A DNA stretch of 64,000 bases from a virus. The position numbers and the translations under genes are program-made. Below are positions 3,995 through 50,326 of the stretch, piece by piece. The first letter of the stretch is position 1. Every line of letters begins with the position of its first letter. The notes below the pieces were generated by a model, which was not told the DNA's origin, did not search any database, and worked only from the letters and a program-made list of their open reading frames with translations. The stretch spans positions 1 through 64,000 of the IMG/VR virus record IMGVR_UViG_3300027881_000007. One strand, 5' to 3'.

Positions 3995-4657
3995 CTAGAA
4001 ATAGATATACCACACAAAAACTAGCTGACGAGTAACATCTTTTACAATTGTAGGAAATGTGACTCTGGCAAATAAACTAAATGGACCTGACTCGCCTCCT
4101 GATTTACTTGGGGCTACATAGAGTCCTGCTTCACTTAACAATTCACCATTTGCATCTGCAGATCCAATTGTCGTCGTAACTTGTGCTATTAACCACTGGT
4201 CGTCATTTGCGTCATCCTGCTGATAGACAACTGTGTCAATCGGATGCTTGTAATAGAAACCACCACGAAAGTCACCATAACTAGTGTCGGTCGAACTTAT
4301 CGGCACTTCACTGGCCATGTCAGTATCAGTGTTGGTCGGCAAAATCGGATCTAGTGGATCACCTGGCGTAACTCCTCCATCTCCCAGGCCTAGCCACCCA
4401 ATAAAATCCTCTTTAACTGGTACTACACTTGCGTTATCAACATTGAAAACTCTTACGGCTACAAATTCACGTCCAAGGTAAACCACAAGGTTTTCGCTGG
4501 AGTATATTTTCTTTCGCTCTCCATCTACTTCTTCAAAAACCTCGACTCTACCCATAGGTTTCCGGAGAACTTTTTCCTTCACATCCATACCATCACCAAA
4601 ACAGTGCTCTCCGTATTCGTCACTTACCTCAACGCGAATCGTTTCTACTTTGCTCAT
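3995..4657 (-). CDS. baseplate/tail-fibre attachment structural protein
   Basis: NLVVxxGR, GLGDGG, SEAGLY and LFARVTFPTIVK motifs seen in myovirus baseplate/collar proteins; next to sheath. Confidence 0.6.
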   Translation of the reverse strand: MSKVETIRVEVSDEYGEHCFGDGMDVKEKVLRKPMGRVEVFEEVDGERKKIYSSENLVVYLGREFVAVRVFNVDNASVVPVKEDFIGWLGLGDGGVTPGDPLDPILPTNTDTDMASEVPISSTDTSYGDFRGGFYYKHPIDTVVYQQDDANDDQWLIAQVTTTIGSADANGELLSEAGLYVAPSKSGGESGPFSLFARVTFPTIVKDVTRQLVFVWYIYF

Positions 4658-4688
4658 GGTTAAATCCTCTTTACTGAGATTGTTTTTA

Positions 4689-4699
4689 ATTTGTTCTAA
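4689..4699 (-). promoter_or_regulatory. putative late promoter motif TTAGAACAAAT
   Basis: One of 8 intergenic copies of TRGAAYAWAT upstream of virion-type genes. Confidence 0.55.
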
Positions 4700-4714
4700 T
4701 ATAAATACAAATTA

Positions 4715-4731
4715 AGTAGTCGCTCGCTACT
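4715..4731. repeat. 17-bp inverted repeat arm, 3' of gene 4739-5659
   Basis: agtagtcgctcgctact is the reverse complement of 5721-5737 at 16/17 positions. Confidence 0.8.
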
Positions 4732-4738
4732 AGTTTAA

Positions 4739-5659
4739 TTAGAATAGGGCGGTCCCACATTTAGCACAGTAGTCGGCACTTGACTTCGACTTGGTACCGC
4801 AAGTTGGACAGTTTACCCTAGACCTAACGGTAACTGGTTTTTCGACCTTAGTCTTATTGGCCTTGGTTCCTCTGAGTTTCAACACAAGGATGTGCGAGTT
4901 AGACTCAAGTTCACCATGAGAACCAAAGTTGAATGACTGATTAGATGCTGAACCAGGAACTGTGATACCTTCATCCTCGGCGGGTTTAGCACTTTCTTGA
5001 ACAGCATCTTGACTAGTAACAAAACCAGCTGCCTGTGTTTCACTCCCAATGGAGCAATTCATCAATTGAACATCACTCGACTGATTGTGATTGAAAGTTC
5101 CTACTTTAGTTTCATCATCAGAGTTTGTAAATGTATAGTTAACTGAGGAATCATCATCTGTTTTAATGGTTGTCCCACCATAGTAATACCTTGTGCAAGA
5201 ACAGGGATCACAGTAGCAACCAGTACAACGAGGATACCAGTATGGCCAAGGTTGATAAGGTCGCCAAGGTTCAGTAATAACTCTCCTTCGCCTGATGACC
5301 TCTTCATACTCGATCTTCTTTTCAAACCTGTACTCTACTCTGATAATCCCGTCATCTATACGGTCACCACGATGTTCAACTATCTCCTCAGTCTTTTGAA
5401 TAAATCGAAATCTATTCTTAACTTCATATCCCTTCAAGAAACCTTCAAGTTCACATTGAGAGTTAGGTTGAAGGATAAGAGACCCATCAATGGCATCCTG
5501 TCCATCAACGGTAACTTTGACAACTGCTATTCTTGATTCAAGGTTTTTCAATAGAAGGGAATACTCTGAACCAAATGGCAGGGTGACAGTATCATCCTTT
5601 TCTCTCAGGACTTTACCGCCACATTTGATAACGGCAACGAAGCGATCTTTATACACCAT
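4739..5659 (-). CDS. hypothetical protein with C-terminal double zinc ribbon
   Basis: LPFGSEYSLLLKN N-terminal domain, Cys-rich middle, C-terminal CPTC...CAKC; AAGGAGG RBS. Confidence 0.8.
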   Translation of the reverse strand: MVYKDRFVAVIKCGGKVLREKDDTVTLPFGSEYSLLLKNLESRIAVVKVTVDGQDAIDGSLILQPNSQCELEGFLKGYEVKNRFRFIQKTEEIVEHRGDRIDDGIIRVEYRFEKKIEYEEVIRRRRVITEPWRPYQPWPYWYPRCTGCYCDPCSCTRYYYGGTTIKTDDDSSVNYTFTNSDDETKVGTFNHNQSSDVQLMNCSIGSETQAAGFVTSQDAVQESAKPAEDEGITVPGSASNQSFNFGSHGELESNSHILVLKLRGTKANKTKVEKPVTVRSRVNCPTCGTKSKSSADYCAKCGTALF

Positions 5660-32542: not shown

Positions 32543-33202
32543 TTATACAATCTCCTCACACGGAGGTATAGGAATCACCTCTCTAGCAGCCACAAAGTCG
32601 AAATACAGTTCAATTACAAAGGCCTCATAACAACTTTGTAAGACTTCAAATGGTTGAGAGATAAGAGTTGTAGTATCATAGACTGAAGTGTCCTCATCAA
32701 TCTTCAACTTCAAGTACACCCATATCAACTTTGATAAATCAGTACTTAGAGCATCTAGTGAGGCATACAAAGTTATTGACGCAGTTGAATCAACTAGAAC
32801 TACTGAGGTTGAATCAACCAAATTAACTCTAGTTGGGTCAATGCGATATGCCAGTAGAGTATTTAGTAGGGTAAAATCATCTGGTTGGAGATGAAATAGA
32901 TTAAATGCATTAGTGCTGTCACATACTTCATACACCTTGGCGGAAGCATATACCGTTATTCTCTCCCTTACCATAGCTGGCCACTTAGACTTACTCTCTA
33001 TATCTTGGAAAAGATATTCATACTCAGTAAATGGATATGATTCATCGAACAGGAGTTGAATGAATGATTTTGGTTTTAGAAAGAGAGTGGGAATTTCAAC
33101 AGGATAAGGTATCTTATCTTTATTGAGATTCCTGTAAACGACTGCCCTACTAAACCAATATTGTAATTCATTTACTAAACTTGTGGAAAATGGTAACGTC
33201 AT
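32543..33202 (-). CDS. hypothetical protein, probably structural
   Basis: Long ORF translationally coupled to the baseplate-like gene; repeated DST motifs. Confidence 0.6.
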   Translation of the reverse strand: MTLPFSTSLVNELQYWFSRAVVYRNLNKDKIPYPVEIPTLFLKPKSFIQLLFDESYPFTEYEYLFQDIESKSKWPAMVRERITVYASAKVYEVCDSTNAFNLFHLQPDDFTLLNTLLAYRIDPTRVNLVDSTSVVLVDSTASITLYASLDALSTDLSKLIWVYLKLKIDEDTSVYDTTTLISQPFEVLQSCYEAFVIELYFDFVAAREVIPIPPCEEIV

Positions 33203-33891
33203 TAAGACTCCTCTTTCGAAATGAAAGAACTAAGTACCATGTAAATATGTCCTTCAAACTCGTGTGGATCCATACCTAATTCATCAGCAAAGGCATGTAC
33301 TTGTTTATCCGAAGGATTTGGATTGGCTTTAAAGAATTTTATAATTTTTGCATGAATGTCTCCACTATCTTCTTGTTCATGCACTGGTTCAGCAGCCTCA
33401 GCTTCAGCTTTAGTTGTCTGTACAGTTCCAGACGGATGATTTGGGGGAGAATAGACTGAATAAAGTTTCAAGTCATCTTCATCCGAGATATTAATAACAT
33501 TGTGTTTAGTTCCAGCTGGTATAACAAATGCTGAACCATCTTCTATTAATATCTCCTTTCCATTTAGGACTACTTTACCTTTTCCTGCTTCAATCCTAAT
33601 AAATTGATCAACATTGGAATGATTCTCTTCTCCAATATCTTCACTAGGCCGAATGCTCATCAATACTAACTGAGATTTTGTAGCAGTATAAAGAACCTTA
33701 CGAAAATTCTTATTTGCTATCGTTTCCTTTTCAATATTAATAAGAAACCCATCAGGAGCTTTATAAATATCAACTTCGTGAGCAGCTTGCTCATACATCT
33801 CACGGATGCATTTTTTCTTAATGGGTCACCACCTCATCCCGGGCGGACAATCTTTCTTCTCAGATAAGTGTTTCAGGTAACTGTCGATCAT
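33202..33891 (-). CDS. cupin-domain protein with N-terminal CPPGMRW-U-PIKKKC module; predicted selenoprotein (TGA at 33826-33828)
   Basis: AGGAGG RBS before ATG 33891, in frame with the cupin ORF (NFRKVLYT, EENH..VDQF, IPAGTKHNV, YSPPNH); hairpin after the TGA. Confidence 0.75.
33793..33811 (-). promoter_or_regulatory. putative bacterial SECIS hairpin
   Basis: ATGCATC-CGTGA-GATGTAT; loop starts 21 nt after the in-frame TGA, G at loop position 2. Confidence 0.6.
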
Positions 33892-33897
33892 TTTAAA

Positions 33898-35037
33898 CTA
33901 CCTCCTAAACTTAATATTTGGTAGAGGGTACCATGGATGCATTGGTGTATATACTTTAGGTTCAACATCAACTTCAGTTTCACTCTCCTCTTCCGTTTCA
34001 ACATCAACTATGTGCTGTTTGGCATCTCTTTCAGTTGTAAATTCAATTGAAAGTTTGCTCAGTACATGGGTAATAGGATTTGATAGTGTAGTATTATCTG
34101 AACCTGCAAATAGCAACCCTACAGCATTGTTATCCATATCCAATACTAGGGAGCCAGAGTCTCCACCATCACTCATGGGACCAGACATTATTTGGTCTTC
34201 AAATAGAGCAATAGGTCCACCATAATTAACCTGTGCTGTTACGTGGAGTTGAATGACTACACCTTGAGTATATCCAGTTGTTCGACCACTTTTCTGAATT
34301 GGTGTTCCAAGAGTTGGTTCAGATACTCCCTTGACATAACCAATTTCAAGTATCATCAACTCCATATCTTCAAACTTAATTGGGGTAGCTATGGCACAAT
34401 CGACTAGATTAGGATCACCCGGTTCAGCTTCCTTAGATAGAGAGAACTTATGACTTGAACCAAGTAGTTGTCCTATCTTATTGAGTACCTTCTCAATAGA
34501 ACCAGCTATAGGACATATAGGTACTGTATCACCAGAGAAGGAGATGGGCACATAGTCGAGTAGACTAGCTACGGTGTCTTCTTCACGGCCACCATCAATT
34601 CTCCCTGGTTGAAATATGGCATCACCTATGGCAGCTTCATTCGAGTTAGCGAACACGTGATTATTACTCAATAGGAGAATATCATCTCCACGCTTAACAA
34701 ACGCACCAAGAGTTCCTGCAGTTATATCTTTATGTCCCATAGATACACCAGCGGGATATGGCCTCCACCAATCACTTCGTTCTTTTAACGCAACAAATTC
34801 TCCTGTCTCAGTAACATCTGTCTTCGTGCCATCACCTACTGTCTGTGGTATCACATCCTTAGCCGGCAACTTCTCAATAGGGAGTTTCTGCTTAACAGAC
34901 ACAACAACACAAACCTCACTTGTAGCTACTCCGGCCACAGTTTTTAAACCAACTCCCACCGCCACCACGTTGGCCTTCTTAAGAAGATCTTTCTTACTCT
35001 CATTCACAACGTTTCTGACAATCTCTATGGTACTCAT
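33898..35037 (-). CDS. trypsin-like serine protease (Nal1-like)
   Basis: AGTLG, LSNNHV (His), DCAIA (Asp), KSGRTTG and GDSGS (Ser); start placed at MSTIE after AAGGAG. Confidence 0.9.
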   Translation of the reverse strand: MSTIEIVRNVVNESKKDLLKKANVVAVGVGLKTVAGVATSEVCVVVSVKQKLPIEKLPAKDVIPQTVGDGTKTDVTETGEFVALKERSDWWRPYPAGVSMGHKDITAGTLGAFVKRGDDILLLSNNHVFANSNEAAIGDAIFQPGRIDGGREEDTVASLLDYVPISFSGDTVPICPIAGSIEKVLNKIGQLLGSSHKFSLSKEAEPGDPNLVDCAIATPIKFEDMELMILEIGYVKGVSEPTLGTPIQKSGRTTGYTQGVVIQLHVTAQVNYGGPIALFEDQIMSGPMSDGGDSGSLVLDMDNNAVGLLFAGSDNTTLSNPITHVLSKLSIEFTTERDAKQHIVDVETEEESETEVDVEPKVYTPMHPWYPLPNIKFRR

Positions 35038-35073
35038 GAGATACTCCTTAATTTCAAAGTAGTCTGTCATACA

Positions 35074-37516: not shown

Positions 37517-37981
37517 TCATCCTCCTATAAATGTTACCTTCTCCTCTAGGTCTGGTTTATATAAACAGAAAGGTATCAACCAACGAAGATTATTTATCAT
37601 AGTAAACTTATTTAGTTCCCTTGTAGATATAATTGATACTCTCTCATCTGTTACAGTCTTAGCCTCATAGAAAGTATCATGCGGCAACTCAATAGAAAGG
37701 AAATACACCCTCCAACCACTACCTTGAATCGTAACCTTATGACGCCATACATATGGATTGGTTTCAATACCTACCTCTTCTTTAAACTCCCTAGATATAG
37801 CCTCATGCATACTTTCACCATTTTCAATATGTCCACCGGGGCCATTTAATGCACCCTTCTGCCAAGCAGGTCTTTGCTTCCTTACTAATATAACTCTCTC
37901 ACCATCTTCTCTAAAAGCAAAACCTACCACATATTCAGTCTTTCCAAATAGCTTTCCTTTCCTCTCAGATGTATTGAGCAT
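37517..37981 (-). CDS. Nudix hydrolase
   Basis: Nudix box GGHIENGESMHEAISREFKEEVG; start set at MLNTSE (GGAGG RBS). Confidence 0.92.
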   Translation of the reverse strand: MLNTSERKGKLFGKTEYVVGFAFREDGERVILVRKQRPAWQKGALNGPGGHIENGESMHEAISREFKEEVGIETNPYVWRHKVTIQGSGWRVYFLSIELPHDTFYEAKTVTDERVSIISTRELNKFTMINNLRWLIPFCLYKPDLEEKVTFIGG

Positions 37982-38162
37982 GAAAATAGTATCCCTCCAT
38001 TTTAAAGTTAGGTGGATAGTCAAACCATCTGGGTTTTATCCATACTTGGTGTCTCTTACAGTTTTGATCCCAACAGTAACGACTAGGTACCAATTCTAAC
38101 TCCCCTTTACTGTTTTGTACGGGAACGTATCCATGACCCCAATAATGCCTGTGCCACCACAT
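37965..38162 (-). CDS. small hypothetical protein
   Basis: AGGAGG RBS before MWWHRHYW. Confidence 0.55.
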   Translation of the reverse strand: MWWHRHYWGHGYVPVQNSKGELELVPSRYCWDQNCKRHQVWIKPRWFDYPPNFKMEGYYFHAQYI

Positions 38163-38534: not shown

Positions 38535-39497
38535 TCACCTTCCTACAAGAGTGTTATAATAGCAACCAACCTTACAAGACGCCAGAACTGCACACTCCTT
38601 ACACTTCTCAGATAACTCCATAATAGAGTTGGTCTTCATACGAGATCCCCTTTGAATCATATTAGTGATCTCATCCATCGTCTTAACATCACCATTATCC
38701 TTCAATATAGAACCAACTTTTATCCTCGTCTGATTGCAGTAATATAGTTCAAAATCATAGTCGATCAAACCCATATGTGTATCACCACAACAAGTTATCT
38801 TCGCAAAGTGAAGACCATCTAAATCGTGAAAACTTATCACATCCAACATATCCTGAGTATAGAAGCACATAGGCAAAACGTGATCATAACTGTGCGATAT
38901 ATTCCTCTTCCATAAGTTAGGTCCTATAGTAGTAACTACGTCAATCCACGATTCTCTATACTGGTTTAAGATATTGTCGTCAAACAAATCAACCTGTGTA
39001 TCCGGAGACAATATAATATGTACATATGGACCCAACTTCACACACTGATTTACCTTCTCAATCATCTCATCTATACCATTTAAGGGTACAACAAAGTGAA
39101 GGGACATACGACGTATAAGATCACCATACTCAGGGAACACATTGGGGTCAAATACAAAACCATTTACTGTAAACTGTAACTTGCCTTGAAAGTGATTCTT
39201 GACGACCACTCCATGTTTCGTGATCTCTTTCATCCTTGTACCATTGGTAAATATATTAACCATTCCATAGTGCTTACAGGACTCTATAACTACATCTATA
39301 AACCTAGGGTGAAGTGTAGGTTCCCCACCCATAATCTTCAACTCTTCTTGTTTTAAATGACCAGAGTTAACCTGCATAAACTTAATCAATACATCGGCAT
39401 CCATAGACCCCGTCATCCTGGCATCTGCATTGAAGCAGTGTGGACACGATGCATTACACAACTCTGTCAGAACTATCCTGTGGGCTAGTTGAATCAT
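38535..39497 (-). CDS. radical SAM protein with SPASM-like C-terminus
   Basis: CNASCPHC (CxxxCxxC), GGEPTLHP, FTNG; C-terminal CKECAVLASCKVGC. Confidence 0.92.
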   Translation of the reverse strand: MIQLAHRIVLTELCNASCPHCFNADARMTGSMDADVLIKFMQVNSGHLKQEELKIMGGEPTLHPRFIDVVIESCKHYGMVNIFTNGTRMKEITKHGVVVKNHFQGKLQFTVNGFVFDPNVFPEYGDLIRRMSLHFVVPLNGIDEMIEKVNQCVKLGPYVHIILSPDTQVDLFDDNILNQYRESWIDVVTTIGPNLWKRNISHSYDHVLPMCFYTQDMLDVISFHDLDGLHFAKITCCGDTHMGLIDYDFELYYCNQTRIKVGSILKDNGDVKTMDEITNMIQRGSRMKTNSIMELSEKCKECAVLASCKVGCYYNTLVGR

Positions 39498-39877
39498 GTT
39501 GTAACCTTACTCTTCTTAGATGGTACCCCATCATATTCATCTAACTTCTCCAAACCCTCTAATATAAGCAAATGTCCTAGATCACGTCCGTCGAGTAATA
39601 TAACATCGGCAACATAGCGATCATACATACCTGCATAATAGGTTCTCAATATAACCTCTTTACCTTCGATGAGGTCTTTGACAAATACAGATGCCTGATT
39701 CCCGTGTGCTTTCTCTGCTTCATTGACAGGTCTAAAGGTCTCAGGCGTATCAACTATGTGAAGTCTAAACCTACCCTTAAACCTAATCCTGAAACCAAGG
39801 TCCACATCAGCGTCATATGTATCACCATCCACAACCCTTGTAATCAACGCCTTATATTCCCATCTAAAATCTTTCAT
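39494..39877 (-). CDS. thermonuclease (SNase-like)
   Basis: RVVDGDT, RL..VDTPE and YDRYVA. Confidence 0.9.
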   Translation of the reverse strand: MKDFRWEYKALITRVVDGDTYDADVDLGFRIRFKGRFRLHIVDTPETFRPVNEAEKAHGNQASVFVKDLIEGKEVILRTYYAGMYDRYVADVILLDGRDLGHLLILEGLEKLDEYDGVPSKKSKVTT

Positions 39878-47262: not shown

Positions 47263-47673
47263 TCATTGAGGTCCATACTTGGGTAATGTGATCCAGGGTT
47301 TTTTGTATTCAGTCTTGCTAAAACTAACCTTCTCTGAATAATAACCATTTGATTCACCTAACCATCTAATGGTCACAGAACCTATAATGGTTGACAACTT
47401 ATAGAATGTCCATGTAAAACTCTCACTACCATACTCCACAGAGTGGTCGTGCTTCTCATTACTAACAACCTCTTCGGCCAACAGTATGGGGTTACCAATT
47501 AAATCCTTTAAATCTCCAACAACATCCACGATGTTGACGGTTTCACATCAGTCTTTGGCATGATACATCTTATATATATCACCTTCTTCGGTGGTAAATG
47601 TCATCTCCGTACTGCCTACATTACCATTGATCTCCTTTATGATCTCATTTTTCATTTCTTCGAACCTTGCCAC
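47263..47673 (-). CDS. conserved phage protein (YHxxD-U-CE); predicted selenoprotein (TGA at 47548-47550)
   Basis: GGAGG RBS plus GTG at 47673, in frame through [12 protein letters not shown] into [16 protein letters not shown]...[18 protein letters not shown]. Confidence 0.8.
47516..47540 (-). promoter_or_regulatory. putative bacterial SECIS hairpin
   Basis: CCGT-CAACATC-GTG-GATGTTG-TTGG; loop starts 18 nt after the TGA and begins with G. Confidence 0.65.
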
Positions 47674-50108: not shown

Positions 50109-50326
50109 GTCTCTACTAACTCGTCTAGTTTTATTTTGAACTCATCTTCTGTAACATTGTATCCTTTTATCCTGGAGAACCAACTTATCATTGTTCCATG
50201 TATCATGGAGTAGTTGTGACATGACATTTCACATATGAAACCAACCAGGCAGTCCTTACATACAACTTCCTCTATAGCAATTAATATATGTCTACCCCAT
50301 CCCGGTTTCCATTCTACTTGCTCCAC
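50096..50326 (-). CDS. CxxCx5Cx3C family protein
   Basis: CKDCLVGFICEMSC. Confidence 0.7.
   Translation of the reverse strand: MEQVEWKPGWGRHILIAIEEVVCKDCLVGFICEMSCHNYSMIHGTMISWFSRIKGYNVTEDEFKIKLDELVETWGN

Follow-up and report, generated by a model that had tools for sequence, protein, structure and literature searches.

Selenocysteine (Sec) insertion at UGA codons is known in cells and in a few animal viruses. In bacterial genes read by SelB, of which fdhF of Escherichia coli is the model, an in-frame UGA takes the place of a Cys found in homologues, directly downstream and at a fixed distance within 16-37 nt comes a hairpin whose apical loop contains G (often GU), and recoding is specific to that site in a genome where UGA otherwise means stop. 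The consensus for such bacterial Sec insertion sequence (SECIS) elements, known as bSECIS, is said to have been set out by Zhang and Gladyshev in 2005, with an apical-loop distance range of 16-37 nt. Among eukaryotic viruses, the glutathione peroxidase homologues of molluscum contagiosum and fowlpox viruses are selenoproteins. The internal proteins of phage T4 (IPI-III and Alt) belong to another class of viral protein, one that carries an N-terminal capsid-targeting sequence cut by the gp21 prohead protease. No paper describing a bacteriophage selenoprotein gene was found in a full-text literature search. The gene considered here, at 33891..33202 on the minus strand, codes for a cupin protein with a T4-like leader and an in-frame TGA at codon 22. 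It lies in a window of 64,000 nt, the whole stretch of DNA analysed, which is the first 64 kb of the 113-kb virus record IMGVR_UViG_3300027881_000007 (G000). Because CheckV sets the completeness of this record at 36%, the 113 kb are taken as part of a jumbo phage; the source is an uncultured marine-sediment jumbo phage.

It is likely that SelB of the host inserts Sec at UGA codon 22 and that 33891..33202 is one gene for a 229-residue selenoprotein. This reading is favoured because the TGA is conserved, because Cys and TGA interchange at its position, and because the hairpin that follows is suitably positioned, co-varies and is specific to TGA forms. Conservation of the TGA, interchange with Cys and a TGA-specific hairpin are the standard computational signature of a selenoprotein gene. 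The locus thus resembles fdhF-type genes in each of the three respects named above, namely a UGA in the place of Cys, a hairpin with G in its loop at a set distance, and recoding confined to particular sites. It differs from them in that the gene is encoded by a phage, with none of selB, selD or tRNA-Sec found in the phage records, and in that the protein would be virion cargo and not one of the redox enzymes of central metabolism.

The full read-through coding sequence (33202..33891, minus strand) has 229 codons with one UGA inside, and runs from ATG 33891-33889 to TAA 33204-33202. A Shine-Dalgarno sequence, AGGAGG (33901..33906, minus strand), lies 9 nt ahead of the ATG, and just ahead of the TAG that ends the upstream protease-like gene (35070..33898, minus strand). 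The 21 sense codons ahead of the TGA specify the leader MIDSYLKHLSE (codons 1-11, 33859..33891, minus strand), KKD and CPPGMRW; after the TGA, PIKKKCIRE leads to ATG 33798, the internal codon at which an open reading frame (ORF) finder starts a cupin ORF of 198 aa (33798..33202). Codons 15-28 (33808..33849, minus strand) form the module CPPGMRW-U-PIKKKC, one copy of the phage module CPxGxxW[C/U]xxxxKC. The candidate Sec codon within it is the TGA at 33826..33828 (minus strand), and the SECIS-like hairpin AUGCAUC/CGUGA/GAUGUAU follows at 33793..33811 (minus strand). An earlier sequence-only reading of this DNA had described most of this arrangement. Its placing of AGGAGG (33906-33901) and ATG 33891 in the same frame and 31 codons ahead of 33798 is borne out by the sequence. 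The TGA at codon 22 is indeed the sole stop in the 229-codon frame, the spacing C-x6-TGA-x5-C is as it was given, and ATG 33798, said there to have no good ribosome-binding site, is preceded by no Shine-Dalgarno sequence. The 7-bp hairpin with G in its loop that it described was likewise found again at 33811-33793, with the loop CGUGA.

The TGA at codon 22 is real and conserved and is no sequencing error, a possibility raised at the outset and answered by relatives of the phage. Three IMG/VR contigs (L001-L003) are mutually identical at the locus, and one of them, the contig of L001 (G001), is a complete genome of 277 kb with terminal repeats. Window and contigs share the same succession of elements: a leader-bearing small protein, an acidic protein, a protease (78% identical to that of the window), AGGAGG, ATG, leader, CPPGMRW, TGA, PVRKKCIREM and cupin. 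More specifically, L001 keeps the TGA inside CPPGMRW-TGA-PVRKKCIREM and has AGGAGG 5 nt ahead of its ATG. When the 31-codon extension of the window is compared with that of L001, 15 codons are identical, 9 have synonymous and 7 have non-synonymous differences, and the nucleotide differences at codon positions 1, 2 and 3 number 5, 3 and 13, on both sides of the TGA. Because these differences fall mainly at third positions, the extension is translated in this frame on either side of the TGA. Contigs from three other samples of other studies (runs X4, X5 and X6; two from marine sediment and one from the subsurface), 95-99% identical to the window, carry 33826-33828 unchanged. Their changes inside the extension, GAG to GAA at 33859 and ATC to ATT at 33886, both lie in the leader and are synonymous; at 33786 a substitution replaces the Ala that follows MYEQ by Thr, which protein P0002 also has. 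The search for related loci by protease alignment recovered only the L001 group, and locus searches with single proteins found nothing.

The module belongs to a wider family in which Cys and TGA alternate. A degenerate DNA pattern for C-P-x-G-x-x-W-(TGN)-x4-K-C matched in at least 119 viral contigs, mostly as Cys forms, and viral contigs yielded 87 distinct Cys-form modules, typically a leader such as MKEFDRFIEE followed by CPSGQYWCYTDKKC. Cys forms are present also in cultured T4-like cyanophages. The motif CPxGxxWCxxxKKC, which the sequence-only reading had ascribed to phages, does occur in many phages. With the TGA fixed, the pattern matched 16 loci in viruses and at least 119 in metagenomes. 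Removal of chance matches left 61 distinct TGA forms that are homologous, and these share residues outside the demands of the pattern: CP is followed by P or E, and the TGA by KC-[VI]-P. Modules stand behind leaders, within proteins, or 9-16 codons ahead of the true stop. Whether homologues have Cys or TGA at codon 22 had been posed as a question before; either one is found, and among full-length orthologues L192 has Cys and L219 and L278 have TGA. No relative of L192 was found among cultured phages. The Cys-form proteins of T4-like cyanophages, such as S-SCSM1 gp29, resemble the window protein in having the module, as C-[PK]-x-G-x-x-W-C-x-x-x-K-K-C, at the N-terminus or right after a leader; they differ in having Cys (TGY) for TGA, mostly without a downstream hairpin, and in the fusion of the module to domains other than cupins.

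Two ORFs of the family hold three module copies each, with U, S and C as the central residues in one (L255 651-1328, plus strand) and D, C and D in the other (L107 12615-13616, minus strand). Since the copies vary centrally, the outer two Cys are the constant feature of the module, the central residue being C or U in most copies.

The hairpin of the window has a 7-bp stem. Counted from the U of UGA, its loop occupies +25 to +29, as compared with +22 to +25 in fdhF. It follows the bacterial SECIS rules in that the apical loop falls in the 16-37 nt range and one of its first two bases is G. Of the 4813 TGA triplets in the 113-kb record, only 2.9% precede a comparable hairpin of at least 7 bp. 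The 3' arm of the hairpin holds ATG 33798, which is unlikely to be an independent start because it is paired within the stem. In the L001 hairpin two pairs have changed yet remain paired (C-G to U.G and G.U to G-C). Every TGA form has a hairpin, with a loop that starts 25-37 nt after the U of UGA and most often at +27; 42 distinct hairpins are found at one position, with G-rich loops such as GGA, GGC, CGGGU, AGUU, AGGUA and CGUGA. The hairpin is kept whatever peptide follows (IPAG, VPEG, VPVG, IREM, VQDE, VSTG and others), and in modules that end in VPK-stop the stem takes in the stop codon and the 3' untranslated region (UTR), with an A-U / G.U / G-C series of pairs. This co-variation was counted by script over the hairpins.

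The hairpin also distinguishes the two forms of the family. A stem of at least 6 bp with G in the first two loop bases follows 43 of the 61 TGA forms and 6 of the 87 Cys forms, and a stem of at least 5 bp follows 55/61 and 18/87, respectively; the median stem length is 6 bp in TGA forms and 4 bp in Cys forms. A covariance model built without the window sequence (R1) matches the window at 33778-33828 with 24.2 bits and an E-value of 0.0015. The alignment behind it (A6) held many spurious rows and was left out of the pair counts.

The same signal recurs at a second gene in the window, a candidate selenoprotein gene of the DUF7448 family at 47263-47673 on the minus strand, with its TGA at 47548-47550 and a hairpin at 47520-47536. 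Read through the TGA, 47673..47263 matches DUF7448 from end to end (1.7e-24). In alignment, the TGA (47550-47548) falls on the first Cys of the conserved motif QDCCE, and all 71 of 71 viral relatives of the gene have TGT or TGC at that position. The hairpin behind it, CAACAUC-GUG-GAUGUUG, has its loop bases at +22 to +24. In the 113-kb record the core CATC(N)GTG(N)GATG has exactly two occurrences, one just after each of the in-frame TGAs at 33828 and 47550. A recoding signal is thus common to two unrelated genes, as would suit one reader acting in trans. The closest DUF7448 relatives (72-82% identical) are called as truncated proteins of 88-95 aa, which suggests that they keep the stop. No DUF7448 homologue was found in G001. 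A further TGA at 50142-50144 (minus strand), close to a cluster of CxxC microprotein genes, has an open frame of 26 codons before it and 137 after it and a 6-bp hairpin with a G-containing loop; it is weak evidence.

Several observations weigh against Sec insertion at codon 22. The hairpin counts were drawn from related sequences, and their P values (1e-11 to 1e-16) overstate independence. The hairpin of the window is short and its folding energy unremarkable (z = -1.1), and neither of the two hairpins matched an Rfam SECIS family at E up to 10, a result of little weight for hairpins of 17-19 nt. Model R1 gives the Cys form L192 25.6 bits against 24.2 for the window and does not separate TGA from Cys forms. 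The central position of the module is not always Cys, as paralogous copies have Ser or Asp there, and two DUF7448 database homologues have Trp at the site equivalent to the TGA. When 185,579 species genomes were scanned with the pattern, 44 stretches matched, and all except one look like chance matches; the sole true module match, a TGA form on a 16.9-kb contig (L360), is in a Saccharibacteria metagenome-assembled genome (MAG) without selB. That contig is suspected to be a phage contig placed in the bin (2.3 Mb) in error, and thus to be uninformative on the host. Neither selB nor selD was found in five phage records, the complete 277-kb relative among them (selA was not searched for), and in the same records there was no tRNA-Sec above the Rfam cut-off. 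Because none of this machinery was found in the phage records, the host would have to supply it; SelB dependence, selenium content and the use of host machinery are inferred.

The best tRNA-Sec matches below the cut-off in the other phage records are ordinary Leu, Ser, Gly and Trp tRNAs according to ARAGORN, which called no tRNA in the 113-kb record. In the complete 277-kb G001 the ordinary tRNAs are limited to four, Pro, His, Cys(GCA) and Trp(CCA). About 1.4 kb from the last two lies a tRNA-like gene of 104 nt (G001 80243-80346, minus strand; L334 1501-1604). It combines an acceptor stem of 8 bp and a T stem of 5 bp with a long variable arm, and its best Rfam match, to tRNA-Sec with 29.8 bits, falls short of the cut-off of 47. 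Outside the window, G000 holds a stable tRNA-like RNA of 143 nt (85279-85421, plus strand; L335 480-622; fold z = -5.2). Its acceptor stem has 9-10 bp and its short D-like arm a loop of 4 nt; it also has a long hairpin with CUA at the tip, a variable region of large size and the T-arm GGG-UUCGAUU-CCC. It drew no ARAGORN call, tRNA-Sec is the best Rfam match with 18 bits, far under the cut-off, and no UCA anticodon loop is evident. A phage-encoded tRNA-Sec was rejected, as the matches are below the cut-off and both odd tRNA-like RNAs are without an evident UCA anticodon. The phage lineage occurs in marine sediment and subsurface samples.

Other explanations of the in-frame TGA have been considered. 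The UGA might be read through without Sec, by a near-cognate Trp or Cys tRNA or by a UGA suppressor tRNA of host or phage, with the hairpin stimulating the event, or SelB might deliver Cys; this is judged unlikely. The conserved frame and hairpin would suit any site-specific read-through, but the position and G content of the loop obey bacterial SECIS rules. A C follows the UGA of the window, yet across the family the base after UGA varies (C, A or G), so that a leaky context is not what is conserved. Suitable tRNAs might be sought in Cys(GCA) and Trp(CCA) of G001, which stand beside the odd 104-nt gene, or in the 143-nt RNA of G000; however, these two odd RNAs have no UCA anticodon in a normal loop, receive no ARAGORN call and score below the Rfam cut-off. 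Although the two DUF7448 homologues with Trp could be taken to favour a Trp tRNA, both recoded sites stand for Cys. A still less probable alternative is that the TGA is a genuine stop, so that the locus would make a leader peptide of 21 residues and a leaderless cupin re-initiated at ATG 33798, with the hairpin regulating their coupling. That ATG is 30 nt past the TGA, and gene callers begin the cupin at the internal Met both in this record and in the 96% identical P0002. It has no Shine-Dalgarno sequence, however, and is paired in the hairpin stem, and the nine codons from the TGA to it are kept as peptide in comparison with L001, with 3 synonymous and 2 conservative changes. In the wider family KC-[VI]-P is kept in frame after the TGA, in many members there is either no Met past the TGA or a distance of only 9-16 codons to the true stop, and other phage cupins of the family have the leader fused directly to the cupin. 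On the side of a genuine stop, Sec recoding always competes with termination; an efficiency of 30-40% is reported for E. coli in PMC4513850.

The remaining explanations conflict more directly with the data. A lone in-frame stop near the 5' end resembles a fresh nonsense mutation, and the TGA could in principle be a sequencing or assembly error or a recent inactivating mutation in a pseudogene. This is contradicted by the presence of the TGA in a phage with a neighbouring protease only 78% identical, in three other samples and in 61 module homologues, and the substitution pattern is that of a translated frame; the explanation is accordingly very improbable. The chance that TGA is a sense codon throughout the genome of the phage or its host (NCBI table 4 or 25) is close to negligible. 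Among cellular organisms, the cupin domain has its nearest relatives in Patescibacteria, a group with some TGA-recoded lineages, and one TGA-form contig was binned with a Saccharibacteria MAG. In contradiction to such a code, TGA ends 25 of 81 minus-strand ORFs (about 30% of window genes), frequently within an ATGA overlap, code 11 leaves ORFs of 1195-2070 aa open, and the coding strand of the 113-kb record has only two in-frame TGAs with open frames on both sides. Frameshifting is ruled out, as the conserved residues after the TGA lie in the same frame.

If the UGA is indeed read as Sec by host SelB, translation would start at ATG 33891 behind AGGAGG, and the hairpin at 33811-33793 would recruit host SelB with GTP and Sec-tRNA(Sec) to UGA codon 22. 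Selenocysteine would be inserted and the ribosome would go on into the cupin, while ribosomes stopping at the UGA would yield only a 21-residue peptide. The predicted product would consist of an 11-residue capsid-targeting leader of T4 type, a beta-hairpin module of about 16 residues (C-x6-U-x5-C), the cupin and a helical tail. The leader would carry this protein into the prohead, where a gp21-type prohead protease would probably cut after LSE and leave the Cys/Sec module at the mature N-terminus. The module itself may be a redox-active or metal-binding Cys2Sec site. Sec insertion had been proposed from the sequence before, and the parts of that interpretation open to checking, namely the conserved TGA, the Cys homologues and the association of the hairpin with TGA forms, are supported. 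A phage gene of this kind would resemble those of molluscum contagiosum and fowlpox viruses in its reliance on host Sec machinery. The latter differ in using a eukaryotic SECIS in the 3' UTR together with SBP2, and in being captured host enzymes with no virus-specific module.

The role proposed for the leader draws on its context in the genome. MIDSYLKHLSE resembles the T4 capsid-targeting sequence and ends in LxE, and the N-terminal pattern M-x(2-6)-Y-[LM]-x-x-[LI]-x-E is found in six ORFs of the record (starts 62193, 54841, 41998, 36474, 35874 and 33891, minus strand), in keeping with the YLxxLxE leader family that the first inspection of the sequence had described. A T4 gp21-type prohead protease gene (Peptidase_S77, PF03420; 52.3 bits, cut-off 27) is present at G000 93268-93750 on the minus strand. 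The six leader ORFs and this gene point to a set of capsid-targeted cargo proteins. The T4 internal proteins provide the parallel: their leaders, too, are of about 10 residues with an aromatic/hydrophobic pattern and end in (L/I)xE, a gp21-type Peptidase_S77 gene is in the same genome, and several unrelated cargo proteins have the same type of leader. They differ from the window protein in that the sequences are unrelated beyond the leader pattern, and in that the T4 proteins, the packaging of which is established where here it is proposed, are without a Cys/Sec module. Many phage cupins of this family have a short leader fused directly to the cupin. The module-bearing Cys-form protein S-SCSM1 gp29 (MK867354.2) is annotated 'virion protein'. 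Labels of this kind for cyanophage S-SCSM1 derive from a virion mass-spectrometry proteome (PMC9602691), in the main text of which the gp29 ORF was not found named. The LxE leaders, the gp21-type protease gene and the S-SCSM1 label fit the capsid-cargo idea, and the cupin protein is probably loaded into proheads and trimmed after LSE.

A broader proposal, held with somewhat less assurance but still thought rather probable, is that a small beta-hairpin module of Cys/Sec type is mobile among T4-like phages, where it sits directly behind capsid-targeting leaders or ends proteins associated with the virion, and that in phages of anoxic marine sediment its central Cys has repeatedly been replaced by SECIS-directed Sec. 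Phage particles would then contain selenoproteins made by host machinery, perhaps with the assistance of the odd tRNA-like RNAs, and the reactive selenol would do its work within the capsid or when the next cell is entered. Were the Sec reading right, standard annotation would truncate or split a whole class of phage genes, and the reliance of some phages on host selenium metabolism would provide a new host-range marker. The virions would carry a reactive selenol, for which roles as a redox latch, a metal site or a cross-link are all possible. Dozens of natural Sec/Cys pairs with very short SECIS elements would also become available for the study of SelB recognition and for engineering.

Residues 77-147 of the read-through protein (33451..33663, minus strand) form a Cupin_2 domain (Pfam PF07883, 5e-15), and the short 198-aa ORF gives 3.5e-15 and 55.9 bits for the same family (gathering cut-off 27.2). 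The nearest solved structure of the cupin is 2OA2 (E 5e-31, residues 32-171), the BH2720 protein, presumably from Bacillus halodurans. This protein and phage cupins labelled 'mannose-6-phosphate isomerase-like', many of which have short leaders, share the cupin domain with the window protein; unlike the latter, they have no Cys/Sec module. An AlphaFold2 model of the 229-residue protein has a mean predicted local distance difference test score (pLDDT) of 83, with the cupin part above 90; in the model the leader is a helix (residues 2-11) and the module forms a beta-hairpin, with one strand at 19-22 and the other at 27-30, at pLDDT of 70-78.

A few kb upstream of the locus, PHROG matches identify a radical SAM protein (38535-39497), a NUDIX hydrolase (37517-38023) and an endonuclease (39494-39877), all on the minus strand, and no link between these and the finding was seen. 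The C-terminal domain of the window protein (FFK-NPNPSD ... HIY; 33205..33366, minus strand), with three predicted helices and no Pfam match, is of variable placement. This helical domain (FFK-NPNPSD...VH...HIY) is C-terminal in the window protein and N-terminal in other phage cupins; in L001 it is a separate downstream ORF (4506-4934, plus strand), and in L098, L160 and L207 it stands before a C-terminal TGA-form module.

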